Made by a program: the position numbers and the translations under genes | Notes under the pieces: model-generated | The model's database searches: none | What the model was told of the DNA's origin: nothing | The model's input: the letters and a program-made list of their open reading frames with translations, nothing else | Shown here: piece by piece, positions 15,700 through 41,877 of the stretch | How positions within the stretch are numbered: the stretch's first letter is position 1 | Layout of the letters: each line of letters begins with the position of its first letter | Assembly: GCA_902785065.1 (NCBI GenBank) | Contig: CACZXH010000008.1 | Span: 72-64,071 of the forward strand | Length of the DNA: 64,000 nt | Reading direction: 5' to 3' | From: an uncultured Bacteroidia bacterium | GTDB lineage: Bacteria > Bacteroidota > Bacteroidia > Bacteroidales > UBA932

Positions 15700-18099
15700 T
15701 TATTCGACGGGAATCGATAAGGTGCTGTGCTTCAAATGGCGGCCGCGGACGGCAAGCCGGAGGTTGCCGGGAGTGTCGCCTGCCTGCAAGATGACGGTGA
15801 GCTGACCGCCAAAAGCATGCATACGAGGCCGATGGAAGAGGTCGAGGCTCGTGGGGTCCCCGTTGGCCGCAGCGCGAAAACGCCCGGCGCCACATACTTT
15901 AAAACGAAGAAGAGAAGCGTCCATGGGGCATAGATTGCCTTCTTTGTCCACCACTTTCACCGTCACATAGGCCAAGTCCTTCCCATCTGCCGCCAGATGC
16001 CGCACGGGGGTGGAAAGCGCCAGATGGTGAGGCTTACCGGCCGTTCGCACACAAGCGGAATCCACCGCCTCTCCATGGTCATAAGCCACGACTTTCAACG
16101 TCCCGGCCTCAAATGCCACATCCGGCCACATCAACCTGTAACGGTCCTCCAGACATTCATCCTGAAGCCCCTCCGCAGGCGCTGAGGGGCGGGCCTTGCG
16201 CCGTACCCCGTAAGAGCGGCCGTTGACGAACAGTTCGGCCTCTTCGTGGCTGGAATAGACGAAAACCGGGACCCTGTCCCCGGGAGACCAGTTCCAATGG
16301 GGCAGAATATGAAGCGTGGGTGCCGCCCGGTTCCAGACACTGCGGAAAAGATAATACCGATCCTTGGGAATCGACGCCAGGTCGATGATCCCGAACATGG
16401 AACTATGGTTGGGCCAGGAATCCACATCATAGGGACTCGGTTCGCCCAGATAATCGAAGCCGGTCCAGACGAACTGTCCCAGCGTCCAGGGATAATCTTC
16501 GGCAAGGGCGAAATCCACATCCGGAATATTGGACCAGGAGCAGGCATCCAAATCGTAGGCTGAGCACTGGTGATCGTCATCCTTGACGCTGAACCGCTTC
16601 ACGGCGGGTAGTTTGTACACACCGCGGGAACTCACCGTGGACCCGGTCTCGCTGCCCAGGATAAAACCCTGCGGGAGCGCTTCCATGGCTTCCTTGTACC
16701 GGAAAGTCCGGTAATTGATCCCGGGAATGTCCACAGTGGCCGCAAAACCGTTTTCCAACACACACGAAACCTGGTCCATACCGCAAGTCACCAACCGGGA
16801 AGGATCCTCCCGGTGACAGATTCCCTGCAGGAACGCCGCCACCTTCCACCCCTCCGGATGACACTGGGAAGGGACCTCATTGCCGATGCTCCACAGCACC
16901 ACCGACGGATGGTTGCGGTACTGGTGCAGCATGTTCACCATGTCTCTCTCTGCCCATTCGCCGAAGTGGCGGTGATAGCCGTTGGCGCACTTGGCCACAT
17001 CCCATTCGTCGAAAGGCTCCACCATCATCATCATGCCCATCTCGTCGCACAGACGCACCAGTTCCGGCGCCGGCATATTATGGGCGGTTCGGATGGCGTC
17101 GCAGCCCATGTCCTTGAGCTGCGCCATCTGATGCCGGAGAGCCGATTCGTTCACCGCCGCCCCCAGCGGACCCAGATCGTGATGGTTGCAGACGCCCTGA
17201 AACTTTCTGGGGCGGCCATTCAACAGAAATCCGCGCCCGGGGACGAAAGCGGTCTGGCGGATGCCGAAGACTGTCTCATAGCGGTCCACTTCCCGCCCCC
17301 CGAGAATCACACGGGAGACGGCCTTGTACAGGGACGGCGTCTCCGGCGACCACAGGCTGGGAGAGGGAACGGTAAACTCCTGTATCGTCTCCGCCCCGGA
17401 CACCACGGAGGAAAGAGAGGCCGCCACGGCCCCGCCGGGATCGAGGATTTCTGTTTCCAGCAGCGCGCCGTATCCCTGTTCGATTCGAGTCTCCAACCGC
17501 ACCAGGGCCCTGTCTTCCTGTACATCTGGCGTCGTCACATAGGTTCCCCAGACCGGCACATGGACCTCATCCGTAAGAATCAGATGGACATTCCGGTACA
17601 GTCCCGCGCCTGGATACCAGCGAGAGGACTGGGGAAGATTCTCCAGCCGGACCCGGAGTTCGTTTATGCCCGGGTGCACAAAAGGAGTGATGTCCACATG
17701 GAAAGAGTTGTAACCGTAAGGCCAGTAACAGACTTCTTCTCCGTTCACGGACACGCGCGCCTCGCTCATGGCCCCGTCGAAGACCAACGTCGCCCGTTTT
17801 CCGGCAGGAATGTTCAGTTTGCGCCGATACCAGCCGACGCCCACCCAGGGAAGGCCGCCGGTGCGCCCGGTCTTAAGCGATGCCTTGTTTTCCATGTTCT
17901 GCGTCACGGCCACGTTCTGAAGGTCGTTCTCGCGGTCGAAGGGGCCATAGATGGCCCAGTCGTGCGGGACGGTCACTTTTTTCCAGCGGGCCGTTCCGTC
18001 TCCCTGATGGAATTCCCACCCCGTATCCAGCAGCACTTCGCTCCGTTGAGCAAAGAGGGATACAGGCAGAAGAAGCAGGAGGCAGAGGATCTTTCTCAT
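15700..18099 (-). CDS. GH2 beta-galactosidase-type glycosidase
   Basis: WYPGAGLYRNV, GVCNHHDLGPLGAA, AIRTAHN, WSIGNE acid/base, LGSET nucleophile; signal peptide. Confidence 0.88.
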   Translation of the reverse strand: MRKILCLLLLLPVSLFAQRSEVLLDTGWEFHQGDGTARWKKVTVPHDWAIYGPFDRENDLQNVAVTQNMENKASLKTGRTGGLPWVGVGWYRRKLNIPAGKRATLVFDGAMSEARVSVNGEEVCYWPYGYNSFHVDITPFVHPGINELRVRLENLPQSSRWYPGAGLYRNVHLILTDEVHVPVWGTYVTTPDVQEDRALVRLETRIEQGYGALLETEILDPGGAVAASLSSVVSGAETIQEFTVPSPSLWSPETPSLYKAVSRVILGGREVDRYETVFGIRQTAFVPGRGFLLNGRPRKFQGVCNHHDLGPLGAAVNESALRHQMAQLKDMGCDAIRTAHNMPAPELVRLCDEMGMMMMVEPFDEWDVAKCANGYHRHFGEWAERDMVNMLHQYRNHPSVVLWSIGNEVPSQCHPEGWKVAAFLQGICHREDPSRLVTCGMDQVSCVLENGFAATVDIPGINYRTFRYKEAMEALPQGFILGSETGSTVSSRGVYKLPAVKRFSVKDDDHQCSAYDLDACSWSNIPDVDFALAEDYPWTLGQFVWTGFDYLGEPSPYDVDSWPNHSSMFGIIDLASIPKDRYYLFRSVWNRAAPTLHILPHWNWSPGDRVPVFVYSSHEEAELFVNGRSYGVRRKARPSAPAEGLQDECLEDRYRLMWPDVAFEAGTLKVVAYDHGEAVDSACVRTAGKPHHLALSTPVRHLAADGKDLAYVTVKVVDKEGNLCPMDASLLRFKVCGAGRFRAAANGDPTSLDLFHRPRMHAFGGQLTVILQAGDTPGNLRLAVRGRHLKHSTLSIPVE

Positions 18100-21000
18100 C
18101 GCAAATCCAGTTTGAGATCCTTGTCTCCCACCAGGATGTGGAATTCTCCCGGCTCGACGAAATAGCGTCCCTGCGCATCCAGATAACCCAGGTCACGGGC
18201 AGGATCGACCTCGAAACGGAACGTCTCCACAGCGCCGGCGGCAATCGGCTTCTTCTCGAAGTATTTCAGCTCACGTTCCGGCCGGGTAAGGACAGAGCAA
18301 TAGGGATCGGACACGAACCACAGCACGGCTTCCTTGCCATCCACCTCTCCGGCATTGCGTACGTCCACCTCCACCGTAAAAGGCCGGGAGAGGGACGCCG
18401 TGCCCACGACATGAGGTTCGCCATAGACATATTGCGTATAGCTGAGCCCGTGCCCAAAAGCATACAGGGGATCGGAGGTAATGTCTTTGTACACGCCCTG
18501 GGATCCGCGCCGACCGGACTTGTGCCGGCCGTAATAGATGGGAATCTGGCCTGCTGTCCAAGGAAACGTGACGGACAGTTTACCCGAAGGATTGATGCGC
18601 CCGCTCAGGATGCCGGCCAAGGCAGAGGCGCCATTGACACCTGGCTGCCAGGTCTCCACGATGGCATCGGCCCACTCGTCCACGCGAGGGATTTCCAGGG
18701 CGCGGCCGTTGGTCAACGTCACCACGACAGGTTTTCCGGTCGCCTTCAGGGCCTCCAACAAAGCTTCCTGACCCACCGGAAGCGCAATGGATGAGCGGGA
18801 AGCGTTTTCTCCGCTCCAGTTCTGCTGCTCGCCCATGCAGTAAATGACCACGTCGCTATCCCGGGCCAAGGCGACCGCTTCGTCAAACCCGTCCCGGAAT
18901 TCGGCCGGGACGTCACATCCTTGCGCATAGCGTACCAGGGCTTCCGGAAATTCGCGGACGATTCCGTCCAGGAAAACATCCACATCCTCCGGCTGGGTAT
19001 GGGCATGCCAATTGCCGCGCAGATCGGAAGGATTCTTGGCCAACGGGCCCACGACGGCAATCCGGGCTACTCCTCGCAACGGTAGGACACCGCTGTTCTT
19101 CAGCAGGACCATGGATTCGGCAGCCAGTTCACCGGCCGTCTGCATCGCTTCGGGAAGGAAGAATCGCTCTTGGGGCTGGCTTTCAGGGGTATAGGGATGC
19201 TCGAACAGGCCCAGGCGGAACTTGACCCGAAGCACACGCCTCACGGCTTCGTCCAACACGCTGCCCGGGATTTCTCCGCTTTCGACCAGCTCTTCCAAGA
19301 ACGTGTCATATCCGTGTGACATCATGTCCATGTCGACGCCGGCCTTGATCGCGGTGGCGCTGGCCGTCCGCAAATCCTTGCAGTAACCCTGATTGACAAG
19401 CTGCCTCACGGCGTCCCAGTCCGACACCATCAGTCCGTCGAAACCCCATGTGTCACGCAAAATCTCCGTGAGCGTATACCGGTTGGCCGACCCGGGCACG
19501 CCGCTGATGTCGTTGAAAGAGCTCATGAGCGAGACGGCTCCCGCCTCCAGGCTCATCCGGTAGGGCGGCAGATACACGTTCCACAGCGTGGGACGGGAAA
19601 TCTCGGTATAGACATAATCCCGACCCGCCTCGGAGGCGCCATATCCCACATAGTGCTTGAGGCATGCGGCGACCGCATCCTGGCTGCGGAGACCCGCGCC
19701 TTGGTAACCACGGACGGAAGCCGCCCCAAAAATCCCGTTGGCATAAGGATCTTCCCCATACCCTTCCGACATGCGGCCCCAGCGCGGGTCGCGGGCCACA
19801 TCGATCATCGGTGAGAAGGTCCAATCCACCCCGCTGCGTCGGGCTTCCCGGGCCGAATGGGCGCACATCCGCTCGACCAGTGCCGGATTCCACGAGCAGG
19901 CCTGACCCAGCGAAATCTGGTACAGGGTCTTGAAACCGTGGATGTCGTCATAGCCAAAGAGGATGGGAATCCCAAGCCGGGACTGCTCCACGGCCTTTTT
20001 CTGCATGGCATTCCGCAGCGTGGGGTCTGCGTCGAAATAAATGAGGGAACCGATTTCGGCCGGAATCTCCTGCACGGCTTCCCCGATATTGTTCACATTG
20101 TTGTTCCGTCCCAGTGTATACTGGTTCAGCTGCAACACCTTCTCATGGATGGTCATGCGGGAAAGGAGATCCTCCACACGCACATCTTCAGGCGCCGATG
20201 CGTCCAGATATCTCGGCCGCCCCGTGTCCGGCCTTCCCTTATAATAGGCCTCCATCACATACCAGGCCTTTTTCTTGGTGCCGTGGTCGGACAACAGGCC
20301 TTTGCGGTTGAAAAACTGCTGGTTGGCCGGATGCTGCCGATAAGGACTCAGGAAGTCGAAGAGCACCCAGGGAGAAACGCCAGCCAGATTGGGTATGCCG
20401 GCAAACATGGTCAGGTTGTCATGGTACAGCGCCGCCTGATAATCTTCGCTCCATGAACTGGCCACGTCGGCATTTCCGTGCCGCCCATCCAGGGCCTCGC
20501 AGCCGAACTCACTGATTACCAGCGGCTTGTCCACAAACACATTCCAGCGAATCTGCGACGCGGGTTTGGGCCAGGCGGCATACCATCCCATGTATTTGTT
20601 GATACCGACCAGGTCCAGTTTCCCCGCAAAACCGTCCTGCATGACGAAGCTGTCGGCGGCCGCATCAAAATGGGCCACATCGAAGGCCGACGTGAACAAC
20701 CTGGAGCCATCCAGGGAACGCCCATAATCGAGCAGCCGGCTCAGGAAAGCGTCCCGGTCCGGGGCGGGACGGGTTTCGTTGGAAATGCTCCAGAAGCCGA
20801 TGGCGCAGCGGTTTCGGTCCCGCTCGATCATCTCCCAGAGATAGGTCTCCGCTTTCCGGTACGTGTCCGCATTGGAGAAGTCGATGCCTTGCCACAGCGG
20901 AATCTCCTCCCAGATCAGCAGACCTTTTTCTTCGGCATATCGCACGATCCGCTCGCTCTGGGGATAATGTGCCAGCCGGATCGCATTGCAGCCCAAATCC

Positions 21001-22046
21001 ACCGCGGCATCCACCAACAGGCGCGCATCGGCCTCGGAGACGGCCCGCCGTTTCTGCATGGGGATTTCTTCATGGAAGGAGACACATCGCAGGAAGGTCT
21101 CCGCTCCGTTGACCAGGATCTTGGTCCCCTCGACGGCCATCCGGCGGAATCCGATCCGCTCCTCCACCCGGTCCCGGGCGGAGGTCAACTCCACCTGGTA
21201 CAGTTTGGGGTTGAGCGGCTCCCACAGGCGCAACCGGCGGGCCTTCATGACCAGACGGGCACAACCGTCCGCATCGGTAAGCGCCTTGCCCTTGAGTTTC
21301 AGTTCCGGAATGGAAAGGATTACTTCCTGCCCCTCCAGGGCCTTCGAAAGGCGCACATCGGCCACGATCTGGTCGTCGCTGCCATCCTGCAGGCGGATGA
21401 AATAACCGGCGATGTGGTTTTCCGGGACATCGAGCAGCATCACTTCGCGGGTGATGCCTCCATAGTTCCACCAATCGAAGGACATCGCAGGAATGGCGTC
21501 GGAGCGACGCTTGTTGTCGACCCGCACGGCCAAGAAGTTGTCGCCGTCCTGGAGCAGATCGGTAACATCCGCCTCAAAAGGCGTGAAAGAACCCTCGTGA
21601 GACACGACCATCCGCCCATTGAGCCAGACGTCACAACGCAGGCTTACTCCGGCGAAATACAGGATGCGGCGGCGGCCTTCCTCCCGGGCGGCCTGGAAAT
21701 GTCTGGCATACCAGACCGTCCCTTCATAGCGCTGCAGTTCAGGATCCTGATGATTCCAATCGCCGGGCACCACCAGCCTTTTGGCTCCTTCGTAGGAGAA
21801 TTCCACGAAGTCGGTCTTCCCTTCCGGCTTGCGGTCCAGGTACATCTTCTTGTCCAGACCCGTGTCATACTGGTCCACGATCGCCATCCATTCCCCGTCC
21901 AGGGACTGTCCCCCGCGGGCATAGGCATTCCCCGTCAGATGACGGGACGGCCGGAGAACTTGCCCGGAGGCACCTTCCACGGACTGGCCGGAAAGCGGCA
22001 GGACCAGCACACCCCCCAACACCATCAAAAGCAGTTTCTTCCTCAT
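18096..22046 (-). CDS. Bifunctional fusion: N-terminal GH2 beta-glucuronidase + C-terminal GH3 beta-glucosidase (~1316 aa)
   Basis: True start MRKKLLL at 22046. GH2 part: RLAHYP, WSISNE, SEFG and the glucuronidase N-x-K motif NRKG. GH3 part: RDPRWGR, KHYVGYG, SDWDAV, FGHGLSY. Confidence 0.88.
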   Translation of the reverse strand: MRKKLLLMVLGGVLVLPLSGQSVEGASGQVLRPSRHLTGNAYARGGQSLDGEWMAIVDQYDTGLDKKMYLDRKPEGKTDFVEFSYEGAKRLVVPGDWNHQDPELQRYEGTVWYARHFQAAREEGRRRILYFAGVSLRCDVWLNGRMVVSHEGSFTPFEADVTDLLQDGDNFLAVRVDNKRRSDAIPAMSFDWWNYGGITREVMLLDVPENHIAGYFIRLQDGSDDQIVADVRLSKALEGQEVILSIPELKLKGKALTDADGCARLVMKARRLRLWEPLNPKLYQVELTSARDRVEERIGFRRMAVEGTKILVNGAETFLRCVSFHEEIPMQKRRAVSEADARLLVDAAVDLGCNAIRLAHYPQSERIVRYAEEKGLLIWEEIPLWQGIDFSNADTYRKAETYLWEMIERDRNRCAIGFWSISNETRPAPDRDAFLSRLLDYGRSLDGSRLFTSAFDVAHFDAAADSFVMQDGFAGKLDLVGINKYMGWYAAWPKPASQIRWNVFVDKPLVISEFGCEALDGRHGNADVASSWSEDYQAALYHDNLTMFAGIPNLAGVSPWVLFDFLSPYRQHPANQQFFNRKGLLSDHGTKKKAWYVMEAYYKGRPDTGRPRYLDASAPEDVRVEDLLSRMTIHEKVLQLNQYTLGRNNNVNNIGEAVQEIPAEIGSLIYFDADPTLRNAMQKKAVEQSRLGIPILFGYDDIHGFKTLYQISLGQACSWNPALVERMCAHSAREARRSGVDWTFSPMIDVARDPRWGRMSEGYGEDPYANGIFGAASVRGYQGAGLRSQDAVAACLKHYVGYGASEAGRDYVYTEISRPTLWNVYLPPYRMSLEAGAVSLMSSFNDISGVPGSANRYTLTEILRDTWGFDGLMVSDWDAVRQLVNQGYCKDLRTASATAIKAGVDMDMMSHGYDTFLEELVESGEIPGSVLDEAVRRVLRVKFRLGLFEHPYTPESQPQERFFLPEAMQTAGELAAESMVLLKNSGVLPLRGVARIAVVGPLAKNPSDLRGNWHAHTQPEDVDVFLDGIVREFPEALVRYAQGCDVPAEFRDGFDEAVALARDSDVVIYCMGEQQNWSGENASRSSIALPVGQEALLEALKATGKPVVVTLTNGRALEIPRVDEWADAIVETWQPGVNGASALAGILSGRINPSGKLSVTFPWTAGQIPIYYGRHKSGRRGSQGVYKDITSDPLYAFGHGLSYTQYVYGEPHVVGTASLSRPFTVEVDVRNAGEVDGKEAVLWFVSDPYCSVLTRPERELKYFEKKPIAAGAVETFRFEVDPARDLGYLDAQGRYFVEPGEFHILVGDKDLKLDLR

Positions 22047-29950: not shown

Positions 29951-31575
29951 TAGCGTTTATCGAACACGACGGTCATCGCGTCAATGTTCACTTCCACATA
30001 ATTGGCGCCTTCCGGAATGACAAAGTAGGCGTAGCGGTTGTCTCCCTGGCCTCCCCGGATTTCCGAGACATCGCCCAGGGCGGGCTCGACGGTTCCGGTG
30101 TAGCTATTGCGCTTGGCTTCGGCCATAGAGCCGTAGGCATACACATTGTTCTGGATGTTGGTCACCAGGAAAGTGAGCCAGGCTGGGCCGGAAGTGGCGC
30201 CTGTGACGGAGTTCTTGGAGTTGTAGTTCCCACTCTTGCGGGGCAGCTCTTCCCCGTAATAGACGAACACGTACGGGTTGGCAAGACTCTGCTTGAGGGT
30301 GTACTGGCGCTGGAAGCCCGCAAGCAGGTCCGGATCCTTGTCCATGGCATTGAATCCGCCCCACATCCACAGCTCGGTAACCTCCTGCTGGAAAGGATTG
30401 ATTCCGGCCACGGTGTTGTTGAAGCTCACCACCTTGTTCTGAGGGTCGGTCGCCGGTGAGTAGATGGCGATGGTCTTGGCGTCGGTATCCACCACCACCC
30501 GGTAAATGCCGTCGGAGGGGATGCTCCAGTATTTGACCGAAGTCTGGCTGGTCAGGGCCTGGCCGAAGGAGACTGCCGTACCATCGGTGATTTCATGGCT
30601 GTCGGAAGCGGGGACGATGGACAGGGTCCTGGCCTCCTCGAACTCCACCGGGATGTATAATGTGCCGGCCTTCAGAGCCCCGTGGAACGCGTAAACCGCG
30701 GAGTTCTCCACCGTAGGCGGGAGAAGGACCTCCTCCTCGAGCGAGCTGCCAGCCAGATAGAGGGCGTCCGACTCGAAAATCTGGGACGACGGAATCACGG
30801 TCACCGTCTTCGTATTGAAATTCAAGGTGACGCGGTAGCTCTCCGACGAAGGAATGAGCCAGTAGGCGGCCTCGGATGCATCCTTGGCGGTAGCGGCCTG
30901 GGCCTCGCCGGTCACGGCCGTATCCTGTCCGGAAGCCGGGACGATGACGTTGTTCTCCTCGCCGTAAATCACGGGGAAATTCAGCTTGCCCGCCGCCAGG
31001 TTGCCGTTATAGACATAAAGCGCTGCGTTTTTGGGACTGGGAGCCAGTTCGACCGGGGTCGCCCCCACCGCCGTGCCGCCCATGAACACCTTGTCAGCCG
31101 CAAACTGCTTGGGGCCGTAGGTCTTGACGGTCACCACCACCGACGACATGTCGGGAATCACGATGCGGGGGCCGGAGTAACTGGCGGTCACATTGAACTT
31201 GAGCGGGACCACCGTGCTGGTCAGCTGGCCGAAATGGCCAACCAGCATGTCCTGCAGTTCCTTGTGGGTATAGCTGCGGGTGAAGCGTCCTTCGTCCTCG
31301 TATTCGCTGATGGGAGAAGCCTTGGAAGCGGAGACGTCCATGGAATACTCGTAGGTCATGATGAAATCGCTGCCATAATCGAAGGCAGGGGTCCAGGAGA
31401 CGGTGAGGGCCACCTCGTTGGGCCGGGCCTCGTCCAACACCACGGAAGGGGCCGAAGCCGAAATCTCCATGATGGCGTTGTAGTTGGACTTCTCGTTGTC
31501 GATCTGGTGTTTGTTGCAGGCGCCGGCCGCCAGAAGCGTCAGGACCGCAAGGGTAAGGTTGGTTATCGCTTTCAT
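29950..31575 (-). CDS. SusE/SusF-like surface glycan-binding lipoprotein
   Basis: Lipobox AGAC, position right after susD, repeated beta-sandwich modules (VFMGG, LYLAGS, LWMWGG; YRVTLN/YRVVVD). Confidence 0.75.
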   Translation of the reverse strand: MKAITNLTLAVLTLLAAGACNKHQIDNEKSNYNAIMEISASAPSVVLDEARPNEVALTVSWTPAFDYGSDFIMTYEYSMDVSASKASPISEYEDEGRFTRSYTHKELQDMLVGHFGQLTSTVVPLKFNVTASYSGPRIVIPDMSSVVVTVKTYGPKQFAADKVFMGGTAVGATPVELAPSPKNAALYVYNGNLAAGKLNFPVIYGEENNVIVPASGQDTAVTGEAQAATAKDASEAAYWLIPSSESYRVTLNFNTKTVTVIPSSQIFESDALYLAGSSLEEEVLLPPTVENSAVYAFHGALKAGTLYIPVEFEEARTLSIVPASDSHEITDGTAVSFGQALTSQTSVKYWSIPSDGIYRVVVDTDAKTIAIYSPATDPQNKVVSFNNTVAGINPFQQEVTELWMWGGFNAMDKDPDLLAGFQRQYTLKQSLANPYVFVYYGEELPRKSGNYNSKNSVTGATSGPAWLTFLVTNIQNNVYAYGSMAEAKRNSYTGTVEPALGDVSEIRGGQGDNRYAYFVIPEGANYVEVNIDAMTVVFDKR

Positions 31576-33283: not shown

Positions 33284-33295
33284 GATTGCATGGTA

Positions 33296-36200
33296 TTAGA
33301 ATTTGATGGAGACGCCGGCAAGCACCGTGGTGGTGATGGGATATGAGGTGTACCCCATCTCGGGATCCCAGCCCTGAGGATAATGGCTGAGAGAGAAAAG
33401 GTCGGAGGCGCTGGCATAGATGCGCACCCGCTTCAGGGAGACCGCGTCAACCCACTTTTCGGGAAGGGTGAAGCCCAACGTGACGTTCTTCAGGCGGAAA
33501 TACGCGCCGTTGAACATCCAGTAGTCGGAAATTGCATAGTTGTTGGAGATTCCCACCTTGGTCAGGCGCGGATATACCGCAGCCGCATTCTCCTCGGCGG
33601 TATTGAAAGGGCTCCAGTACTTGCCGTCGATGATGGCGGGGATGTTGCCATAGTTGTCGCGGAGCGGCTGTACCATGGCGGAGCCGAGATAGGAGTTCTT
33701 CATGCCGATTCCCTGGAAGGCCATGGAGAAGTCGATGTTCCTCCAGGAAAGGTTCACCGTGCCGCCGTACTGGAAGCGGGGCAGCTGGTTGCCCAGCACC
33801 ACCCGGTCGTACTCCGGAGAGATCTTGCCGTCGGGGACGCCGTCGGGGCCAGAGATGTCCTTGTACTTGACATCGCCCACCGCCACCGTGCTGTTCAGCT
33901 TGGCAGAATTGACCACGTCGTCCTGGGTCAGGAAGAGACCATCGCTCTGATAGCCGTAATAGGCGTTGTAGTATTCACCGGCCCGCTGGATGGTGCTGCT
34001 GCCGATGATGTCGGCGTCGTTGAGATAATCCATCCGGGACAGGAAGTCGGACACGTTGGCATTGATGCTGTAGGCAAAGTCGCCGGCCCGGTCGTGCCAG
34101 CCCAGTTCCAGATCCCAGCCGCGGGTGCTCATGCGGCCGGCATTGGTGCGGGGATTGCTGTAACCCATCGCCCAGGGAATCTCGATGGAAAGGAGCATGC
34201 CGTCAGTGGACTTGGTGTACCAATCGAAGCCCATGGAGAGGCGGTCCTGGAAAAAAGTGGCGTCAAAACCGAGGTCAAGGGACGTGGTGGTCTCCCAAGT
34301 AATGTCCTCCACGGCCAGACCACGCTGTGAAGCCGTCTTTCCCGAGTTCACATCGCCATCCTTGTAGAAGAGCGCGTCACCGAAGCTCATCAGGGCCAGG
34401 TAAGGGAAATAGTTGTCGCCGATGCGCTCGTTGCCCAGCATGCCCCAGCTGACCCGGAACTTGAGGAAAGACAGGACGGGCTTGAGAGGCTGCATGAAGG
34501 ATTCCTCGCTCAGGACCCAGCCGGCCGATACGGACGGGAAAGTTCCCCAGCGGTATTTCCGGGCGAAACGGGAAGAGCCGTCGTGACGCACATTGGCCTG
34601 GAAAAGATAGCGGTCGGCATAATCATACATGACGCGGCCGAAGAAAGAGTTGGAGGTGTATTCGCTGCCGCTGCCAGAGTTCTCCATATAATCCTCGGGA
34701 CCCACGTTCAGGTAAGGATACTGGATCAACTCATACTGGTCACGGGCGGCCGTGAGGGATTCGCTCATCATCACGTAATTCTCAAAGCCGGCCATGGCGC
34801 TGAAGTGGTGCTTGGTCCCGAACGTGTGATTGTAGTTGACCAGGAGCTGTGACGTGACGTTGTAATTGTCGTTGCGGGTCTCGCTTAACTTATTGGTGGC
34901 GTAGGAAGAGCCGCCCCCTTCCAGCCATCCGCCGAAAGCATCGGGATCATCCATCAGCGTATAATAGACGGCATTCTTGAACTGCTTGCTCTTGGTGTAG
35001 TTGATGAAAGGCGAGACGACCGCCTGGATGCTCAGGTCCTTGATGGGTTTGAATTCAATGGTGCCCTTGCCACCCAACTGGGTGCTCCAGGAGGTGTTGT
35101 TGCCACCGTGCAGCAGCAGGCCATAGGGATTGGCGCCCGACTTGCCTTCGGCGATACGGCCGTCATCCCAGACGGCGGCATACACGGCAGGGGTCTTGCG
35201 CATGTCGCTGAACGGACTATACACGGTTGTGCGGTTCTTTCCGCGGCGGACATTGATGTCCAGCGAGGCGAAGAGCTTGTCCTTGATGATGGTGAAATCG
35301 TTGTTGGTACGCAGCATATAGCGCTGGAAACCGCGGCCTTCATACAGACCATCCACTTCGTCATAGGAGAGAGAGACCTTGGTGCGGACCGATTCGTTAC
35401 CGCCCGAGACCGACAACTGGTGGGTCGTCCGGGGGGCATAGTCCTTCATCATCAGACCGCGCCAGTCGGTGATGGGATAGTGATTGGGATCCGTCGCATT
35501 GTTCTTGACCCAGTTCTTGACCTGATCGGCTGAATAGAGCTGGAAGAATCCGGCAGAGTTGTTGTCGTTGTACAGCAGTTCATTGGACATTTCCAGGAAA
35601 CGGGTCACGCCCACCATATCGGGTTCGGCCGTGGGAATCTCCAGGCCGTACTCGCCGGTGTAGGTGAGACTCATGGCCGACTGTTCGCCTCGCTTGGTAG
35701 TGATGAGGATGACGCCTGCGGCGGCCTTTGAACCATAGATGGAAGCGGCGGCGGCATCCTTCAGGACGGAGATGCTCTGTACGTCGGAGGGGTTCACGTA
35801 GTCCATGCTGCTGACCTGAACGCCATCTACGATAATGAGCGGGTCAGACGTGCCGATGGTCGTGATACCACGTACGCGGATGCTTCCGGCCGATGCGCCC
35901 GGTGCCGAATTGTCCCGGGTAACCATCACGCCGGACATGGCGCCCTGCAAGGCGGTTGAGAGGGTGGTCGTCTTCTTTGCCTCAAGGTCTTCGCCACGCA
36001 CGGAGGCAACCGAGCCGGTGAGATCCTTGCGCTTGACCGTACCGTAACCGATCACCACCACCTCGTCAAGGAGTTTGGAATCGGGTTCCAGGGTGATTTC
36101 GACACGGGCCCTGTTTCCGGGGACCACATCCTGGTCGACATAGCCGATGTACGACACCGTGAGTGTGGCCCCCTGCGGGTAATCCAGGGTAAAGGAGCCG

Positions 36201-36382
36201 TCGACTCCGGTGGTCGTTCCAGTGGTCGTCCCTTTCACGAGCACGGCGGCTCCGATGAGCGGCTCGCCGTTTTCGTCGAAGACCACGCCGGTAAGCCTTG
36301 CGTTCTGTGCGGTGACGGCCAGAGAGGCGAGCATCAAGCACACGGTCGCGAGGATACTCAATGTACTGTGGATTTTTTTCAT
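33296..36382 (-). CDS. susC: SusC-like TonB-dependent transporter (PUL2), intact
   Basis: EVVVIGYG, VLKDAAAASIYGSKAAAGVILITTKRG plug motif, C-terminal GVSIKF. Confidence 0.95.
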   Translation of the reverse strand: MKKIHSTLSILATVCLMLASLAVTAQNARLTGVVFDENGEPLIGAAVLVKGTTTGTTTGVDGSFTLDYPQGATLTVSYIGYVDQDVVPGNRARVEITLEPDSKLLDEVVVIGYGTVKRKDLTGSVASVRGEDLEAKKTTTLSTALQGAMSGVMVTRDNSAPGASAGSIRVRGITTIGTSDPLIIVDGVQVSSMDYVNPSDVQSISVLKDAAAASIYGSKAAAGVILITTKRGEQSAMSLTYTGEYGLEIPTAEPDMVGVTRFLEMSNELLYNDNNSAGFFQLYSADQVKNWVKNNATDPNHYPITDWRGLMMKDYAPRTTHQLSVSGGNESVRTKVSLSYDEVDGLYEGRGFQRYMLRTNNDFTIIKDKLFASLDINVRRGKNRTTVYSPFSDMRKTPAVYAAVWDDGRIAEGKSGANPYGLLLHGGNNTSWSTQLGGKGTIEFKPIKDLSIQAVVSPFINYTKSKQFKNAVYYTLMDDPDAFGGWLEGGGSSYATNKLSETRNDNYNVTSQLLVNYNHTFGTKHHFSAMAGFENYVMMSESLTAARDQYELIQYPYLNVGPEDYMENSGSGSEYTSNSFFGRVMYDYADRYLFQANVRHDGSSRFARKYRWGTFPSVSAGWVLSEESFMQPLKPVLSFLKFRVSWGMLGNERIGDNYFPYLALMSFGDALFYKDGDVNSGKTASQRGLAVEDITWETTTSLDLGFDATFFQDRLSMGFDWYTKSTDGMLLSIEIPWAMGYSNPRTNAGRMSTRGWDLELGWHDRAGDFAYSINANVSDFLSRMDYLNDADIIGSSTIQRAGEYYNAYYGYQSDGLFLTQDDVVNSAKLNSTVAVGDVKYKDISGPDGVPDGKISPEYDRVVLGNQLPRFQYGGTVNLSWRNIDFSMAFQGIGMKNSYLGSAMVQPLRDNYGNIPAIIDGKYWSPFNTAEENAAAVYPRLTKVGISNNYAISDYWMFNGAYFRLKNVTLGFTLPEKWVDAVSLKRVRIYASASDLFSLSHYPQGWDPEMGYTSYPITTTVLAGVSIKF

Positions 36383-36411: not shown

Positions 36412-37911
36412 TTATTTAATCAGGATGGAGTTCACGCACACCCAGCCGCCTGCTTTGAGAGCGGGGTCGACCGCCACTTCCAGGCCGGGATTCTGGTCCT
36501 TCTTCCGGTCCACCAGACCGACAGCCAAGGTGTAGCGCCCTGGTGCGACACCTTCCAAGGAGACTTCCTGGGAATAGACGAAGGTTTTCCCCTGGCGCCA
36601 GTCGGACAGGACAGTGCTGTCCGATGCCCATTTGGCCACCGCATTCCCTTCCCCGTCCAGAAGCGCGACCCCGACCGTGTAACGGCCGTTCCACTGGGGA
36701 ATGTTCACCGGGCAATAGCCCCAACCCATATTCCGCCAGGCGTACCGGACTCGGAGCGTGCCGCGGGCGCTGCGAGGCGCCTTCACCCATTCGGGATAGA
36801 GGCGGTAGCCACCCTCGGCCACGAAACGCTTCACGAGGTCGAACTCCTGACCGAACCAGGAGCGTACCTCGTCGTTCACGCGCAGGTCCATCATATTCAC
36901 CCGCGCCTCACGAGCGGCCACAAACTCACCCTGACGCACATCTTCCGAGTGACCTTCGCGGTAGGCACCGGAAGGGTCGGTCCAGTAGCGGTGGTGGGCG
37001 GCGGTAATCCAGCCTCCCTCCAAGATGATGGGGCGCTTGAAATTCCATTCGGCCGCAAAGGCCTTTTCCCAATCCTGATAGTAGCCATTCATGCCAAAGG
37101 CGTCATGACGCAGGCTGTAGCCGTTGTCAATAGCCTGGCGAAGGAGCCGTTCCGACACCTCCGAGACCGGGCCCCAGCCGTCCTCGGAGACTTCCCCCAG
37201 CAGACGGTGGTAGTTGATGACCAGCGGGATTTCTGTAAAGGTACGCGCGTATAGACCGGTGATCCAGGCCATCACTTCGCTGTTCTTGCCGGGATCCTTG
37301 TAAATAAGGCTGTGGCCCTCTCCCCACTTGCCCAGGCCATAGGCATCGATGAAGTCCACCTTGTCTATGTCGTTGTACTCCTTGGCCAGCGCCTCCACGA
37401 AGCGGGAATACTTCTCCTGGAAAACCGGATCGTCGGGATAGGGAGAGCGGACCTCGCGGCTTCCCACCCGGGAAATGAAATATTCCGCGCCCGCGTCGAA
37501 CACATAGTCGGGCGTATTCTGGCCCTGGTCCCGTCCATCCACGACGATGCGGAAGGAGAGTTTCATACCCCGGTCCAGAATGGAACGGAAAAGGCGGTTG
37601 AGGCGGGACTCGGGATCCTCCCACGCGTATTTTCCTTCCTCGGGTTCGAAGGAGACCCAGCTCGTACGGACATAGGCGGTATTGGCATAGTCCGAGACCC
37701 GGACGGTCGTTCCTTCCGAGGTCGGAATCGCATCATAGCCGGATTTCTCCCAGAATGTCTCGTCCCAGTCGCGGCGGAGGTACATGACCCAGCCGTTGAG
37801 GGGGTTGCGAAGGACGGTCTTGGTATCCGGGGTGAATTCCACTTTTCCCGGAGTGCAGCTGGCGAAGAGCAACAGGGCGCTGATCAGCAGGGTGGTGTAT
37901 CGTTTCATCAT
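36412..37911 (-). CDS. DUF4832-like lipoprotein, putative clan GH-A glycanase (copy 2)
   Basis: Paralog of 28346-29950: RNPLNGW, DYAN, YPDDPVFQ, GKWGEGH, LEGGW; lipobox FASC. Confidence 0.65.
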   Translation of the reverse strand: MMKRYTTLLISALLLFASCTPGKVEFTPDTKTVLRNPLNGWVMYLRRDWDETFWEKSGYDAIPTSEGTTVRVSDYANTAYVRTSWVSFEPEEGKYAWEDPESRLNRLFRSILDRGMKLSFRIVVDGRDQGQNTPDYVFDAGAEYFISRVGSREVRSPYPDDPVFQEKYSRFVEALAKEYNDIDKVDFIDAYGLGKWGEGHSLIYKDPGKNSEVMAWITGLYARTFTEIPLVINYHRLLGEVSEDGWGPVSEVSERLLRQAIDNGYSLRHDAFGMNGYYQDWEKAFAAEWNFKRPIILEGGWITAAHHRYWTDPSGAYREGHSEDVRQGEFVAAREARVNMMDLRVNDEVRSWFGQEFDLVKRFVAEGGYRLYPEWVKAPRSARGTLRVRYAWRNMGWGYCPVNIPQWNGRYTVGVALLDGEGNAVAKWASDSTVLSDWRQGKTFVYSQEVSLEGVAPGRYTLAVGLVDRKKDQNPGLEVAVDPALKAGGWVCVNSILIK

Positions 37912-38019: not shown

Positions 38020-41000
38020 CTACTGGGGATTTTCTTGTTTCTTGAATTCGGATGGAGAAAGGTTCCAGCGGCGTTTGAAGCAGACGCTGAAGTACTTTGG
38101 ATTGGCAAAACCCGTGCGGTCCGACACTTCGGCCACGGTCAGGTCGGAGTCTTTCAGCAGTTGAGCGGCCCGCTTGAGCCGGATGTCCACGATGAATTCT
38201 TTGATGGACATACCGGTCAGGTCCTTAATCTTCTGGTACAGGATGGTCCGCCCGATGGCCATGTCGAAGACGAACTCGTCCACGTCGTAGTCGTTGTTGT
38301 CCATATTCTTCTCTATGAAGGCCATCGCCCTGGATAGGAGCTGTTCGTCGAGCGAGGAGATGACCAGCTTGGCCGGTTCGGCCACGAAGCGCTTGGAGAA
38401 ATACTCCCGGAATTCCGCCTGCATACGCAGCAGACCGTCCACCTGCGAGAACAGATAGTCCATTTCGAACGGCTTTTCGATGAAGACGTTCGCCCCGCTT
38501 TCGAGGGCCTTCACCTTGCTGGAGGAGTCACCCGACAGGACGATGACCGGGATATGGCTGGACTTGAAACTGCCCCGCAGCGTACGGCACACCTCGAAGC
38601 CGTCGGTTTCGGCCATCATCAGGTCGGTGATGACCACCTGCGGACGGACCCGCTCCACGGTTTCCAAGCCTTCCGCACCACCCGAAGCGACATACACGTT
38701 AAATTTGGCGGACAGGTGCTCTTCCAAATAATTGCGGAGATCCCGGTTGTCGTCGATGACCACCACGGTATCGGACTTGCGGGAACGGCGGTCGGACCGC
38801 TCGCTCCCGGCCATCTCCTCCACGAGAGCATTGATTTCCTTCTCAACGAAGACATAGGAGTCCGATGCGTCATCTTCGTCCGTGGCCTTGCACTTCGGGA
38901 GGGGCAGGGAAACGGTGAACGTGACCCGGCTGTCGGCCGAGCGAGCGCTGATCTCCCCGCCCAACTGCGTCACCAGTTGTTTGACGATGGCCAGACCCAG
39001 GCCCGTACTGCTCTCGAACTGGGGTTCAAATCCCTTGTCCAGATTGGCCGTTCCCGTATTGGCGACACTCACGCTGACGCCTGGTCCCTCCGGCGCGCCG
39101 GACGGTCCGATGTGGACCGAAATGAGACCGGGGAGGGTGGTGTACTTGACGGCGTTGCTGAACAGGTTCGTGAATATCTTCTCGATGACCTCGTGGTCGA
39201 ACACGCTGTGATAAGACTCGAACTGGGATTGGAATTCCATCTCGATGCCCTGGCGGTTAGCATACAGTTCGAACAGGGAGAAGATGCTCTCCAGGAAACT
39301 CACCAGTTCCCCGTGGCGAGGGTGCAGAGGGAAATGCCGGCTTTCAATCTGGCGGAAAGTCAGCAGTTGCCCGATCATCCGCTGCATCCGGGTCACGCTA
39401 CGTTCGATGAGCCGGGTATATTTCGTAGCCGACGAATCCTCCGGGATATGTTCCTTGAGCTGCCGCAACGGATCCACGATCAGGGAAAGCGGGGTCTTGA
39501 GGTCGTGGGAGATGCTGGTAAAGAAATCCTCTTTCATCTTCTCCAGTTCCATCTGTTCCCGGTACACCTTCCGGTTGGTGAAATAGCGCCAGATGAAGAC
39601 GGCGATGCCCAGCAACAGAAGAAAATAGATCAGCTTGGCCCACCACGCAAGGAAAGGGGAAGGCCGGATCGTAAATGCCAGGCTCGCGATGTCGTCCCCC
39701 CAAAGGCCGTCGTTGTTGGAGGCCCGCACTTCAAAACGGTAGTTCCCGGGTTTCAGGTTGTAGTAACGCATGGACTTCTGACCGGGAGGCAGCACGGTCC
39801 AGCTGTCGTCCAAGCCGGCCAGCCGGCAGGAATAACGGTTGTTCTCCGCGCGCAGATAACTGTCCGAAGAGAATCTCAGGTCGATGTTCGACTGGTTGTA
39901 CCGAAAGTCCAACGGGACCTGCGTGCCGATGTACCGCTGGGTGGGCAGGCTCTCGTCGTTCACCCGGATGTCGGTGAAAAACACGCTGGGTTTCCAACCA
40001 TTGGTCTTGATCTCGGCCGGATTGACCATGATGAAGCCGTCTGTGCCACCAAAAAGCAGTTCTCCCCGGGAAGTCAGGAAGGCGGAGCGTACATAGAAAG
40101 CGCCGCAGTGGCTGGGATTGTTGACGGTGGACACAATAAGACGGCCATTCCGGAGACAGTGCAAACCGTCGTCGGTACTCATCCAGACATCGCCGGAGAC
40201 CGGATCTTCCAGGATTCCGAAGACCGTCCGCCCATTCATAGAAAGGTTCTCATAGCGGCCGTCCGGATGGAGGATGTTCACACCCGCCCCTTTCGTGCCG
40301 AACAGGATGTCTCCGCCGGAAGTGCGGCCATAGCAGCAAAGGTTGTTGACGGCGTAGGGCTGGTCCGGCAGATAGATGGTCCGAATCGTTTTCCTGGCAA
40401 CCGGGTCGAAAAGCTGGATGCCGGAACGGGTGATCAGCCAAAGATTTCCGTCCTCTCCCCGGAAAAAGGTTTCCACGTTGCGGCGGCGCTCGCTGCGCAT
40501 CACTTCAATTTTTCCGTTCTTCAGGTCCGCATGCATCAGGTCGGCGTCAGGATCGCTCATCCAAAGACCGCCCTGGCCGTCCGGCAGCAGTTCATACACA
40601 CTCAGGGACGGATCCCGGGGGCCACGCGTGATGGGCAGAGTCCGCCATCGACCTGTCCTGGCATCGAAAGTCTGGACGCCGGAGTTGAAGAACGCCACCC
40701 AGAGAGTGCCTTCGTCATCAACCCAGAGTTTCTTCACCAGATTGGATACCAGACCGCTCCCATCCTGCTGGGTATAATAGGAAAACTGATCCCGCTTCCT
40801 GTCCCAAACGGTGATGCCGCCACCTTCCGTCCCGACCCACAGGCGACCTTCCGCATCCTCGCAGAAGCAGCTCACGATGGGATGCCCCAGGCCGCCGGGG
40901 CTGGCCTTGAACCAATACTCGACATCGCTGTCCCACTCCGTGGCAAGGGCCAGCTTGCCCCCATACGTGCCTACCCATACGGTCCCTTCCGGACCGGGAC

Positions 41001-41877
41001 AGAAGGACCAGACGGAATTGCCCGGAAGGGAGAAGGGATACTGCAGGTTGGACCTCAGCAGTTCCGTCTTTCCGGTATTCGGACAGACGAGCATGAGGCC
41101 ATACTGCGTCCCCACCCAGATAATGCCGTCCCGATGCTGGTGCAATTGCTTGGCCGTGGAACCGCGGTCATTCTCGATGGGCAGCGTGAAACGGCGCAAG
41201 ACGGTTCCCTCCGGGGAACATTCGTACAGACCCTCCGAGAGGGTCAGCACATACACACGTTCTCCCGTATCCAGCACGTCGGCGATTGGATTGGACCCGA
41301 AATCGGCAAAGGCTTTCCACGCGGCCTCTCCGGGGGCTGACCTGAAAATCCGACCACCGGAAGCCACATACAGATGATTGCCGCTGGCATTGAGCGTCAG
41401 GCGCATCGGGTCAGGGTTCAAATCCGCCGGAAGAGGCTTCTCCCCCTGATCCAGTCCATACACTTTCCCGTCACAGATAAGCCAGACCGAAGCGTCCGCC
41501 GTGCGTTCCAGGGCGCCGATATTGCCCTCCAAGACTCTCTCAAAGCGGTTGTACCTGCTGTTGAAACGCTGCAGCCCATGGTTGGTCGCCAGATACAGCC
41601 TTCCCTCCCGGTCCGTCGTCAAGAATCCCATGCTCCAAGGCCGTTCGGGCTCCTGGCTGGTGACAAGCCTCGTCATGTTTTCGAACGAATCGCCGCCGAA
41701 ACGGAAGACGGCATCGGCTCCGCTGAACCAAAGACGTCCCAGGCTGTCGGTGGTGATGCTGTGGATTCCACCGTAATAAGAGGTTTCAGGCAAGGCGTGG
41801 AAACGGATATGCGACGATTGGGCGTGCGACAAAAGCACACCTAACAACAGGGCACAAGCGAGGACGATCCGTTTCAT
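38020..41877 (-). CDS. Hybrid two-component system (propeller sensor-Y_Y_Y-TM-HisKA-HATPase-REC-AraC)
   Basis: H-box FFTSISHDLKTPL, N-box NLFSNAVKYT, receiver IDDN..ITDLMM, AraC VAEVSDRTGFANPKYFSVCFK. Confidence 0.93.
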   Translation of the reverse strand: MKRIVLACALLLGVLLSHAQSSHIRFHALPETSYYGGIHSITTDSLGRLWFSGADAVFRFGGDSFENMTRLVTSQEPERPWSMGFLTTDREGRLYLATNHGLQRFNSRYNRFERVLEGNIGALERTADASVWLICDGKVYGLDQGEKPLPADLNPDPMRLTLNASGNHLYVASGGRIFRSAPGEAAWKAFADFGSNPIADVLDTGERVYVLTLSEGLYECSPEGTVLRRFTLPIENDRGSTAKQLHQHRDGIIWVGTQYGLMLVCPNTGKTELLRSNLQYPFSLPGNSVWSFCPGPEGTVWVGTYGGKLALATEWDSDVEYWFKASPGGLGHPIVSCFCEDAEGRLWVGTEGGGITVWDRKRDQFSYYTQQDGSGLVSNLVKKLWVDDEGTLWVAFFNSGVQTFDARTGRWRTLPITRGPRDPSLSVYELLPDGQGGLWMSDPDADLMHADLKNGKIEVMRSERRRNVETFFRGEDGNLWLITRSGIQLFDPVARKTIRTIYLPDQPYAVNNLCCYGRTSGGDILFGTKGAGVNILHPDGRYENLSMNGRTVFGILEDPVSGDVWMSTDDGLHCLRNGRLIVSTVNNPSHCGAFYVRSAFLTSRGELLFGGTDGFIMVNPAEIKTNGWKPSVFFTDIRVNDESLPTQRYIGTQVPLDFRYNQSNIDLRFSSDSYLRAENNRYSCRLAGLDDSWTVLPPGQKSMRYYNLKPGNYRFEVRASNNDGLWGDDIASLAFTIRPSPFLAWWAKLIYFLLLLGIAVFIWRYFTNRKVYREQMELEKMKEDFFTSISHDLKTPLSLIVDPLRQLKEHIPEDSSATKYTRLIERSVTRMQRMIGQLLTFRQIESRHFPLHPRHGELVSFLESIFSLFELYANRQGIEMEFQSQFESYHSVFDHEVIEKIFTNLFSNAVKYTTLPGLISVHIGPSGAPEGPGVSVSVANTGTANLDKGFEPQFESSTGLGLAIVKQLVTQLGGEISARSADSRVTFTVSLPLPKCKATDEDDASDSYVFVEKEINALVEEMAGSERSDRRSRKSDTVVVIDDNRDLRNYLEEHLSAKFNVYVASGGAEGLETVERVRPQVVITDLMMAETDGFEVCRTLRGSFKSSHIPVIVLSGDSSSKVKALESGANVFIEKPFEMDYLFSQVDGLLRMQAEFREYFSKRFVAEPAKLVISSLDEQLLSRAMAFIEKNMDNNDYDVDEFVFDMAIGRTILYQKIKDLTGMSIKEFIVDIRLKRAAQLLKDSDLTVAEVSDRTGFANPKYFSVCFKRRWNLSPSEFKKQENPQ

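Follow-up and report, generated by a model that had tools for sequence, protein, structure and literature searches.

Polysaccharide utilization loci (PULs) are the feeding route of gut Bacteroidota, and most of them are still without a known substrate. Here we report that positions 15700-41877 of a 64,000-nucleotide stretch of contig CACZXH010000008.1 (assembly GCA_902785065.1; the whole stretch is referred to below as the window) are a real PUL, controlled by a single hybrid two-component system (HTCS) regulator, in an uncultured rumen-type Bacteroidales bacterium. Comparison with other genomes indicates that it is a member of a PUL family that is conserved among Bacteroidales of gut and rumen and has yet to be characterised functionally. 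We consider it probable that this one HTCS-controlled PUL targets a branched heteroglycan, usually O-acetylated, that carries β-linked hexuronate (glucuronic acid, GlcA, and/or galacturonic acid, GalA) together with β-glucosyl and galactosyl residues. Both a microbial and a plant-derived polymer fit the evidence.

The locus consists of 11 abutting or overlapping genes that run on the minus strand from 41877 down to 15700 in the open reading frame (ORF) listing, and thus form a tightly packed PUL (Table 1). A preliminary description of this DNA had listed these genes as all lying on one strand, and ORFs and Pfam annotation confirmed 11 of 11 at the positions then given. The susC and susD genes are adjacent, the carbohydrate-active enzyme (CAZyme) genes, which comprise two glycoside hydrolase (GH) family 3, two GH2 and one GH36-like, are co-oriented with them, and the HTCS is complete, with a signal peptide, a periplasmic β-propeller sensor, a receiver and an AraC-type helix-turn-helix (HTH) domain. 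Lipoboxes were found on SusD, the SusE-like protein and two unclassified proteins, here called unkA and unkB, while the other five enzymes carry Sec-type signals. The genes for unkA and unkB flank susC-susD-susE. The earlier reading of a PUL centred on two DUF4832-like glycanases was upheld in so far as the locus has a pair of paralogous, unclassified lipoproteins that resemble glycosidases (38% identity over the full length, E=3e-108), and the earlier statement that no recognisable classical endo-glycanase or lyase is present also held, since Pfam annotation of the locus proteins revealed no classical endo-glycanase or polysaccharide lyase (PL) domain. This layout supports the view that the unclassified enzymes may stand where an endo-glycanase or lyase normally would.

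We examined the distribution of the locus by scanning one genome per prokaryotic species for relatives of unkA, and identified 280 loci encoding one. The closest relatives (69-79% identity) come from rumen metagenome-assembled genomes (MAGs; RGIG, RUG and UBA4360), and further carriers belong to Cryptobacteroides, Alistipes, Muribaculaceae/Duncaniella, Prevotella/Segatella and Bacteroides (B. congonensis, B. reticulotermitis and Bacteroides sp. GM023); they live in the guts of herbivores, rodents, birds, humans and termites. When the 11 proteins of the window's locus were used as tblastn queries against 79 of these loci, a recurrent core of unkA-SusC-SusD-SusE-unkB-flavoprotein emerged. Six loci were followed beyond the core. 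The GH36-like enzyme, a GH2 of the β-glucuronidase (GUS) type, GH3, a GalB-type GH2 and the GH3 with an inserted PA14 domain (GH3-PA14) come next, at 51-65% identity, in Bacteroidaceae HV4-6-C5C, Muribaculaceae and both Prevotella sp. P6B1 and Prevotella B2-R-102, and in B. congonensis the series was traced up to GH3, where the fetched stretch ends. Chance did not bring these genes together, since synteny of the enzyme set extends to several further Bacteroidales families, with 45-65% identity in Prevotella, Muribaculaceae, Alistipes, Cryptobacteroides and Bacteroides. SusC orthologues share 60-85% identity across 49 related loci, and HTCS orthologues (63-64% identity) head the five closest ones (L007-L011). 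The regulator is not conserved throughout: the HTCS is found in the window's clade, and an extracytoplasmic function (ECF) sigma factor/FecR pair with an STN-bearing SusC in ∼40 loci.

The frequency of the family was estimated in a sample of 201 evenly drawn Bacteroidales genomes. With a threshold of E<=1e-60, unkA-type proteins were present in 4 of the 201, so that the locus family is recurrent but patchy. In the same sample 21 genomes had the flavoprotein type and 9 the GH36 type, and all 9 GH36 carriers also had the flavoprotein type; the two types go together and reach more genomes than unkA does. Each of the 10 unkA-bearing genomes tested contained exactly one GH36 orthologue, which in 9 of them lies on the unkA contig, at most ∼11 kb from the fetched unkA locus.

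A probable cultured counterpart of the locus was recognised through a complete 6,472,489-bp Bacteroides genome (G041), in which the gene order is DUF4886, GUS-type GH2, carbohydrate esterase (CE) family 7, GH36-like, flavoprotein, GH88/105, GH3-PA14, GH3, unkB-like, unkA-like and SusE-like. Identities to the window's proteins are 57% for GUS, 56% for the GH36-like protein, 60% for the flavoprotein, 58% for GH3-PA14, 63% for GH3, 49% for unkB and 45% for unkA. Bacteroides ovatus ATCC 8483 has an HTCS-type PUL 44 (BACOVA_02102-02117) that is listed, without having been characterised, in Martens et al. 2011 (PMC3243724 Table S5), with BACOVA_02103 blank, 02104 as GH2, 02105 as CE7, 02106 as GH36, 02107 blank, 02108 as GH105, 02109 and 02110 as GH3, 02111 and 02112 blank, 02115 as susC-like and 02116 as susD-like (PMC3243724). 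Since the order of nine genes is identical, we identify the G041 locus with PUL 44, which on this evidence is very probably the counterpart of the window's PUL in B. ovatus; BACOVA_02106, whose position matches that of the window's GH36-like gene, is the one listed as GH36. BACOVA_02102-02117 are absent from the table of genes changed >=10-fold (PMC3243724 Table S4), which covers growth on β-glucan, oat-spelt xylan, wheat arabinoxylan, galactomannan, glucomannan, xyloglucan and homogalacturonan as well as mice on plant-rich chow, and they are likewise missing where the PULs common to B. ovatus and B. thetaiotaomicron are tabulated (PMC3243724). No homologous PUL assigned to a common plant glycan was found, in agreement with the missing entries for BACOVA_02102-02117 in the induced lists (PMC3243724 Tables S4/S5); such an assignment had been named beforehand as what would overturn the preliminary description. 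The two versions differ in content, in that PUL 44 adds CE7, DUF4886 and GH105, while the fetched G041 region has no GalB-type GH2 and has GH2 and GH3 as separate genes where the window has a fusion. Between G041 and the window, SusC identity is as low as 27%, and the same value holds for a neighbouring HTCS whose membership of the PUL is not established; because of this low identity the sensed fragment may differ in the B. ovatus version. A literature search for the combination of CE7, GH88 and GH36 in B. ovatus returned no functional data.

At the usual thresholds neither Pfam nor NCBIfam has a model that the two unclassified lipoproteins match, the best values being E=0.022 for GH42 and E=0.19 for DUF4832, and PDB sequence searches with either protein gave no meaningful relatives. 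They are the only two copies of their family in the window's 2.74-Mb genome. More than 1000 homologues were found among 5.8 billion proteins, nearly all of them from gut or rumen metagenomes. An AlphaFold (AF2) model of unkA built from 34 homologues had a predicted local distance difference test (pLDDT) score of 90.6, and consists of an eight-stranded (β/α)8 barrel followed by a C-terminal β-sandwich. Foldseek comparison of this model with the PDB returned GH35 β-galactosidases, a GH5 mannanase, a GH10 xylanase, β-amylase and GH157. The matches to the GH35, GH5, GH10 and GH157 barrels had a probability of 1.0, yet all had template modelling (TM) scores <=0.40 at ∼10% identity, so that in the model the fold class is clear, without a close solved relative. 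Three segments are invariant in the 34 homologues: W85-x3-E89-P-x-E92-G, which we take to be a GH35/GH42-like motif, G194-x-W-G-E198-x-H and E298-G-G-W. In the model E198 (GKWGEGH) follows predicted strand 4 (185-189) and E298 (ILEGGW) follows strand 7 (295-297), which makes these residues the candidate acid/base and nucleophile, respectively. We therefore regard unkA and unkB as putative retaining glycosidases of the clan GH-A type, from an unclassified family related to DUF4874/DUF4832. A separate observation concerns a 2.2-Mb genome of the same genus (G164), which encodes seven unkA-family paralogues (39-54% identity) on four contigs (C25, C20, C2 and C3), as against two in the window's genome; the unkA family has expanded in this genus.

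The preliminary description had called both proteins DUF4832-like. Against Pfam gathering thresholds of 29.2 bits for DUF4832 (PF16116) and 30.1 bits for DUF4874 (PF16173), unkB scores 11.9 bits with the DUF4832 model, unkA has no match, and DUF4874 matches neither. Orthologues of unkB in other genomes score 30-39 bits to DUF4832, at model positions ∼66-203 only, and some of the homologues have been named 'DUF4832 domain-containing protein' by NCBI. We aligned the unkA family by hhalign with canonical DUF4874+DUF4832 proteins taken from Bacteroides genomes, and obtained a probability of 96.8% for the C-terminal 165 columns only (the last helix and the β-sandwich); the barrel gave no significant alignment, and the GxWGExH barrel motif is common to the unkA family and the canonical DUF4874 proteins. 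The two-domain proteins thus resemble unkA and unkB in size, in their barrel-plus-β-sandwich layout, in GxWGExH and in the homologous C-terminal region, but pass the Pfam models that unkA and unkB both fail. On these alignments the name would be fair for remote homology, which the hhalign result and the orthologue scores bear out, and not for family membership, both proteins being below every Pfam threshold. DUF4874/DUF4832 proteins occur in Bacteroides and, among Gram-positive bacteria, in Pel loci (bioRxiv 10.1101/768473), and no published activity for either domain was found in the literature searched.

One indication of the substrate comes from the GH2 half of the GH2-GH3 fusion. It aligns end to end with the solved GUS of PDB 6D8K (∼65% identity, 746 bits, E=2.7e-223) and also matches BuGUS-1 6D1N (514 bits), the β-galacturonidase AqGalA 7VQM (465 bits) and FsGUS 6NCY. 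The carboxylate-binding N-x-K motif for uronates is kept (N632-R-K634), and by its similarity to BuGUS-1, 6D8K, FsGUS and AqGalA this half can be placed in the β-glucuronidase/galacturonidase clade; it differs from those enzymes in being fused to GH3. BuGUS-1 and FsGUS are hybrid glucuronidase/galacturonidase enzymes (PMC10535898). Compared with the 'YW' motif of such hybrid enzymes (PMC10535898), the window's GH2 has Leu, not Tyr, before the conserved Trp, as placed by eye. We searched 151 Bacteroides species genomes for the source of 6D8K and found no exact match, the best being 87% identical; a review table gives the source as B. ovatus (PMC10535898), an assignment that could not be confirmed. 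The GH3 half is of the BglX type with the SDW nucleophile motif at 927, and its PDB matches are 5TF0, 3U48, 5XXL (a periplasmic β-glucosidase), 4ZOA (Lin1840) and 6R5I. GH3-PA14 has its SDW motif at 284, its best PDB matches are the GH3 β-glucosidases 7MS2, 8J9F and 2X40, and it is predicted to be a periplasmic exo-β-glycosidase; like the fusion, it has both the N- and the C-terminal GH3 domain according to Pfam. The last GH2 scores 813.6 bits with the NCBIfam GalB model, for which the cut-off is 900, and matches the β-galactosidases 5T98 and 9BEY in the PDB. Of the linkages to β-GlcA, β-Glc, β-Gal and α-Gal read earlier from the exo-enzymes, β-hexuronate, β-Glc and Gal were thus upheld, with the qualification that β-GlcA could equally be β-GalA since the GH2 half lies in a clade with hybrid enzymes (PMC10535898).

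The fusion itself is unusual within the family. In almost all relatives GH2 and GH3 are separate genes, including the nearest (L014 and L016), where they are adjacent and, in L014, overlap by 4 bp; the same fusion was seen in just one other locus (L076, Cryptobacteroides onthequi), and the Prevotella and Muribaculaceae loci have the DUF4886 esterase fused to GH3 instead of GH2. The GH2-GH3 fusion would accordingly be a derived state, or a one-base assembly error in this MAG may lie behind it. We noted that two loci of B. reticulotermitis JCM 10512 (L050 and L091) have their GUS-type GH2 and GH3 orthologues each split into at least two ORFs (257+324 aa and 299+307 aa), which is either gene decay or draft-assembly frameshifts.

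Two further enzymes have no close characterised match. The GH36-like protein reaches 30.5 bits with the Pfam Melibiase model against a cut-off of 27, covering 95 of 347 model positions, and its similarity to GH36 α-galactosidases in the PDB is E=5e-5 at best. The motifs D338-D339-G-W (338-341) and K426-x-D428 are invariant in 16 orthologues, while the segment at the usual GGGR-x-D acid/base context reads ATAGRRAGY, without Asp, D461 and D487 being conserved alternatives. By these motifs it appears to be a divergent GH36-type (clan GH-D) glycosidase with a specificity that is not assignable, and to read an α-Gal linkage from so divergent a GH36, as had been done, was to over-read it.

In the flavoprotein a part that resembles carbohydrate-binding modules (CBMs) of families CBM6 and CBM35 (∼residues 20-155) precedes a PF12831 domain (181-583). 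The GxGxxG motif is intact, with G186, G188 and G191 invariant in the orthologues, which are abundant and named merely 'FAD-dependent oxidoreductase'. PDB sequence and profile searches gave a match confined to the 40-residue dinucleotide-binding motif. The structure model, from a shallow alignment, is poor, with residues ∼60-190 well predicted; it can be used for the CBM-like region at the N-terminus and for the Rossmann core, and the catalytic part gave generic flavoprotein fold matches. With Foldseek the N-terminal module matched CBM6 (2CDO, 2CDP) and CBM35 (2W47, 2VZP) at TMt ∼0.6, and because of this resemblance the protein looks carbohydrate-targeted; 2W47 is a CBM35 solved with unsaturated galacturonate. 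The signal peptide is of the plain Sec type (MKKILTLAFFSVWAWSLGAAS), without a twin-arginine motif. In the literature searched we found no functional data for PF12831/FAD_oxidored proteins in PULs. A proposed relationship of PF12831 proteins to the Paenibacillus xanthan lyase XalA was dropped, as XalA (AAG24953.1) is a PL8 enzyme (PMC10881899).

Relatives of the locus carry accessory genes that the window's copy lacks. We clustered 901 ORFs from related loci and annotated the recurrent clusters with Pfam, which identified SGNH-type esterases with DUF4886, either free-standing or in fusions, along with AXE1/CE7 esterases, a GDSL+BD-FAE esterase, unsaturated uronyl hydrolases of the GH88/GH105 type, and a β-helix protein anchored by the type IX secretion system (T9SS); no polysaccharide lyase domain was found among the annotated genes of the related loci. 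The esterases indicate that the natural substrate of the PUL family is O-acetylated, and GH88/GH105 that uronate ends with a 4,5-unsaturation reach some versions of the PUL. For DUF4886 no activity is known (PMC9487903), and the literature searched contained no functional data on it. The β-helix protein (515 aa, right-handed, with a gingipain-type T9SS C-terminal domain; L052:4372-5919 and 20 other loci) is encoded upstream of the ECF sigma/FecR genes in these 21 Muribaculaceae/Prevotella-type loci and has no PDB relative. In that version of the PUL it could serve as a lyase or hydrolase at the surface; as the missing lyase of the window's locus it was excluded by its absence from the window's genome. 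The sole GH88/105-like gene of that genome lies on a short contig (C42:211-7207), is 50% identical to one inside a related PUL (L020), and adjoins a second GalB-type GH2 (38% identical); the gene may belong to this pathway as an accessory that has become separated from the PUL.

With domains and synteny as the observed basis, we infer the following roles for the enzymes. At the cell surface unkA and unkB would make the first cuts, or trim a linkage beyond the reach of the classical families. SusD and the SusE-like protein, a probable surface glycan-binding protein, would bind the fragments and SusC would import them, after which the Sec-exported exo-enzymes would dismantle them in the periplasm: the GH2 half of the fusion would take off β-GlcA/GalA, its GH3 half and GH3-PA14 β-Glc or a related sugar, the last GH2 β-Gal, and the divergent GH36 an α-linked (Gal-type) residue. 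The CBM6/35-flavoprotein would act at some step on the same oligosaccharide, and the released oligosaccharide would be sensed by the propeller domain of the HTCS, leading to induction of the operon. The window's copy would be a minimal version, without the esterases and GH105/88 of its relatives.

This scheme can be compared with the xyloglucan locus of B. ovatus (BACOVA_02640-59), whose genes encode GH5, GH9, GH2, two GH3, GH31, GH43, SusC/D and an HTCS. The two loci are alike in the HTCS, in SusC/D with a surface binding protein, in two GH3 of β-glucosidase type, in a GH2 β-galactosidase and in a clan GH-D α-glycosidase, and share the logic of surface endo-cut, import and periplasmic exo-trimming. 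Unlike the xyloglucan locus, the window has no GH5, GH9 or GH16 endo-glucanase and has two unclassified GH-A-like lipoproteins instead, and it adds a β-hexuronidase and the CBM-flavoprotein; BACOVA_02102-17 are not listed as xyloglucan-induced.

Several points weigh against this account of the locus. Endo-activity of unkA and unkB is read from position and lipidation, and their best fold matches, at TM<=0.40, are exo-β-galactosidases (GH35). Xylosidases and arabinosidases, too, belong to family GH3, and the divergent GH36 may be something other than an α-galactosidase. Acetylation and unsaturated ends are read from the relatives only, the window's copy having neither esterase nor GH105. The model of the flavoprotein is poor (pLDDT 59.6), and its Sec, not Tat, signal is awkward for a cofactor-loaded redox enzyme.

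As to the nature of the polymer, the preliminary description had favoured capsules or exopolysaccharides (EPS) of other microbes, built of GlcA, Glc and Gal, a source that we judge unlikely. Polymers of this kind, often acetylated, would be xanthan/acetan-like ones, in which a cellulose backbone bears acidic side chains, cellobiuronan-type capsules or colanic-acid-like ones. Two GH3 β-Glc exo-enzymes and a β-hexuronidase, with the acetyl esterases and GH105/88 of the relatives, do fit an acetylated acidic EPS, and the proposed lyase-free Thermogutta route for xanthan likewise joins a GH2 β-glucuronidase to a GH36-type and an unconventional endo-enzyme (PMC10881899). The characterised xanthan-oligosaccharide PUL of B. 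intestinalis, however, is different (PL, GH88, GH92 and GH3; PMC10881899), and xanthan, gellan or colanic acid would need an α-mannosidase, rhamnosidase or fucosidase, none of which is in the locus. The EPS reading stays alive because PUL 44 is not listed as induced by the seven common plant-wall glycans, nor by plant-rich chow; the recurrence of the locus in gut bacteria of herbivores, rodents, birds, humans and termites points to a substrate of general availability, for which a dietary origin is just as possible. Targets outside the 2011 panel, namely arabinogalactan protein (AGP)/gum, rhamnogalacturonan I (RG-I) side chains, mucilage and saponins, fit the enzyme set about as well as EPS does.

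Among these, an acidic plant glycan, such as type II AGP/gum side chains (β-GlcA/4-O-Me-GlcA on β-1,6-galactan), acetylated RG-I side chains or seed/root mucilage, is a tentative candidate that lies somewhat on the improbable side. GH105 is the family that acts on the products of AGP and RG-I lyases by taking off their unsaturated uronates, and it is present in relatives, as are CE7, GDSL and DUF4886 esterases; carriers are enriched in herbivore guts. The locus combines a β-hexuronidase with a GH2 β-galactosidase and a GH36/GH27-like enzyme that shows a weak match to the β-L-arabinopyranosidase BAD1528, and the best NCBIfam match of GH3-PA14, far under its cut-off, is exo-α-L-arabinopyranosidase. 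These likenesses have to be set against two β-glucosidase-type GH3 as conserved core members, the lack of GH43_24, GH30_5, GH28, GH78/106 or any PL family typical of AGP/RG-I loci, and BACOVA_02102-17, which were not induced by homogalacturonan, nor by plant-rich chow in vivo. Far less probable is the deglycosylation of small plant glycosides rather than a polymer, for example oleanane-type glucuronide saponins (soyasaponins, some acetylated), glycyrrhizin-like compounds or flavonoid glucuronides, with the flavoprotein acting on the aglycone or a sugar C-OH; saponin sugar chains had been named as an alternative in the preliminary description too. The glycan chains of group A/B soyasaponins contain β-GlcA, β-Gal, β-Glc and (α-L-Ara), with acetylated forms, and an enzyme set for these sugars together with the acetyl esterases of relatives would match them; but SusC/SusD/SusE, two surface lipoprotein glycosidases, the CBM6/35-like module and GH105 are typical of systems that capture oligo- or polysaccharides, the locus has no rhamnosidase, and no saponin PUL was found in the literature searched.

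A bolder proposal, which we regard as a long shot, is that the DUF4874/4832-like lipoproteins, the CBM6/35-flavoprotein and the divergent GH36 form a new route that opens a hexuronate-bearing acetylated glycan beyond the classical GH/PL families. In its boldest form the Sec-exported flavoprotein would be no conventional oxidoreductase, and would act on a 4-O-substituted uronate in a step that is eliminative or assisted by flavin. If true, such an eliminative flavoprotein would be the source of the unsaturated ends removed by the GH105/88 of relatives, and would explain why a lyase domain does not turn up in the annotated genes of related loci.

Table 1. Genes of the PUL in order of transcription (window coordinates; P0001 and P0002 are protein identifiers).
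Feature	Coordinates	Strand	Length (aa)	Domains and signals
HTCS regulator	38020..41877	-	1285	Pfam: Reg_prop, Y_Y_Y, HisKA, HATPase_c, Response_reg, HTH_18
unkA (P0001), lipoprotein	36412..37911	-	499	Lipobox LLFASC
SusC-like TonB-dependent transporter	33296..36382	-	1028	Pfam: CarbopepD_reg_2, Plug
SusD-like lipoprotein	31580..33283	-	567	Pfam: SusD_RagB, SusD-like_3; lipobox TLASC
SusE-like lipoprotein	29950..31575	-	541	Pfam: SusE N-terminal domain PF14292, E=1.6e-14; lipobox AAGAC
unkB (P0002), lipoprotein	28346..29950	-	534 (as ORF)	Lipobox MVAAC; unkA paralogue
GH3 with inserted PA14 and Fn3-like C-terminus	25917..28349 (ORF 25917-28466)	-		Pfam; Sec signal
CBM6/35-like module + PF12831 flavoprotein	24070..25920	-		Pfam: FAD_oxidored, 222.8 bits over 181-583
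Divergent GH36-type	22043..24073	-	676	Pfam: Melibiase, 30.5 bits; Sec signal
GH2-GH3 fusion	18096..22046 (ORF 18096-22202)	-		Pfam, NCBIfam; Sec signal
GH2, β-galactosidase type	15700..18099	-	799	Pfam, including DUF4982 and C5 domains; Sec signal

For three of the genes the ORF and the protein start have to be distinguished. The start of unkB is ambiguous (GTG 29950 or ATG 29944), and for the fusion and GH3-PA14 the true starts are likely M53 (22046, 1316 aa) and M40 (28349, 810 aa), each directly before the signal peptide. We set the limits of the PUL at 15700-41877 because the flanking genes are unrelated, being an MgtC gene on one side (15124-15678, plus strand) and a Na/Pi-cotransporter/PhoU/winged-helix HTH fusion gene on the other (41963-43924, minus strand). 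The latter is a single 653-aa ORF in which two Na/Pi-cotransporter repeats and PhoU are followed by a C-terminal winged-helix DNA-binding domain of the OmpR/PhoB type, an unusual fusion of transporter and regulator. Elsewhere in the window, a large HTCS-like regulator (11109-15065, plus strand) has Reg_prop, Y_Y_Y and AraC HTH_18 domains, with no Pfam match to HisKA, HATPase_c or a receiver, and diverges from a second PUL at ∼2266-11149 that comprises GH3, a carboxylesterase, GH43, SusD and a TonB-dependent receptor.

The same enzyme set has been kept in rumen MAGs, Cryptobacteroides, Alistipes, Muribaculaceae, Prevotella/Segatella and Bacteroides. No fewer than three of the core enzyme types, the DUF4874/4832-like barrels, the CBM-flavoprotein and the very divergent GH36, are without a characterised relative, and the DUF4886 esterase of relatives brings a fourth. 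It would be of particular mechanistic interest if the glycan locus of a strict anaerobe indeed encoded an exported flavoprotein that carries a carbohydrate-binding module. Carriers are in culture with B. congonensis, Prevotella sp. P6B1 and Bacteroides sp. GM023, and B. ovatus ATCC 8483, which is genetically tractable, is very probably another, so that the substrate of this PUL family can be tested directly, as can up to four new CAZyme activities.

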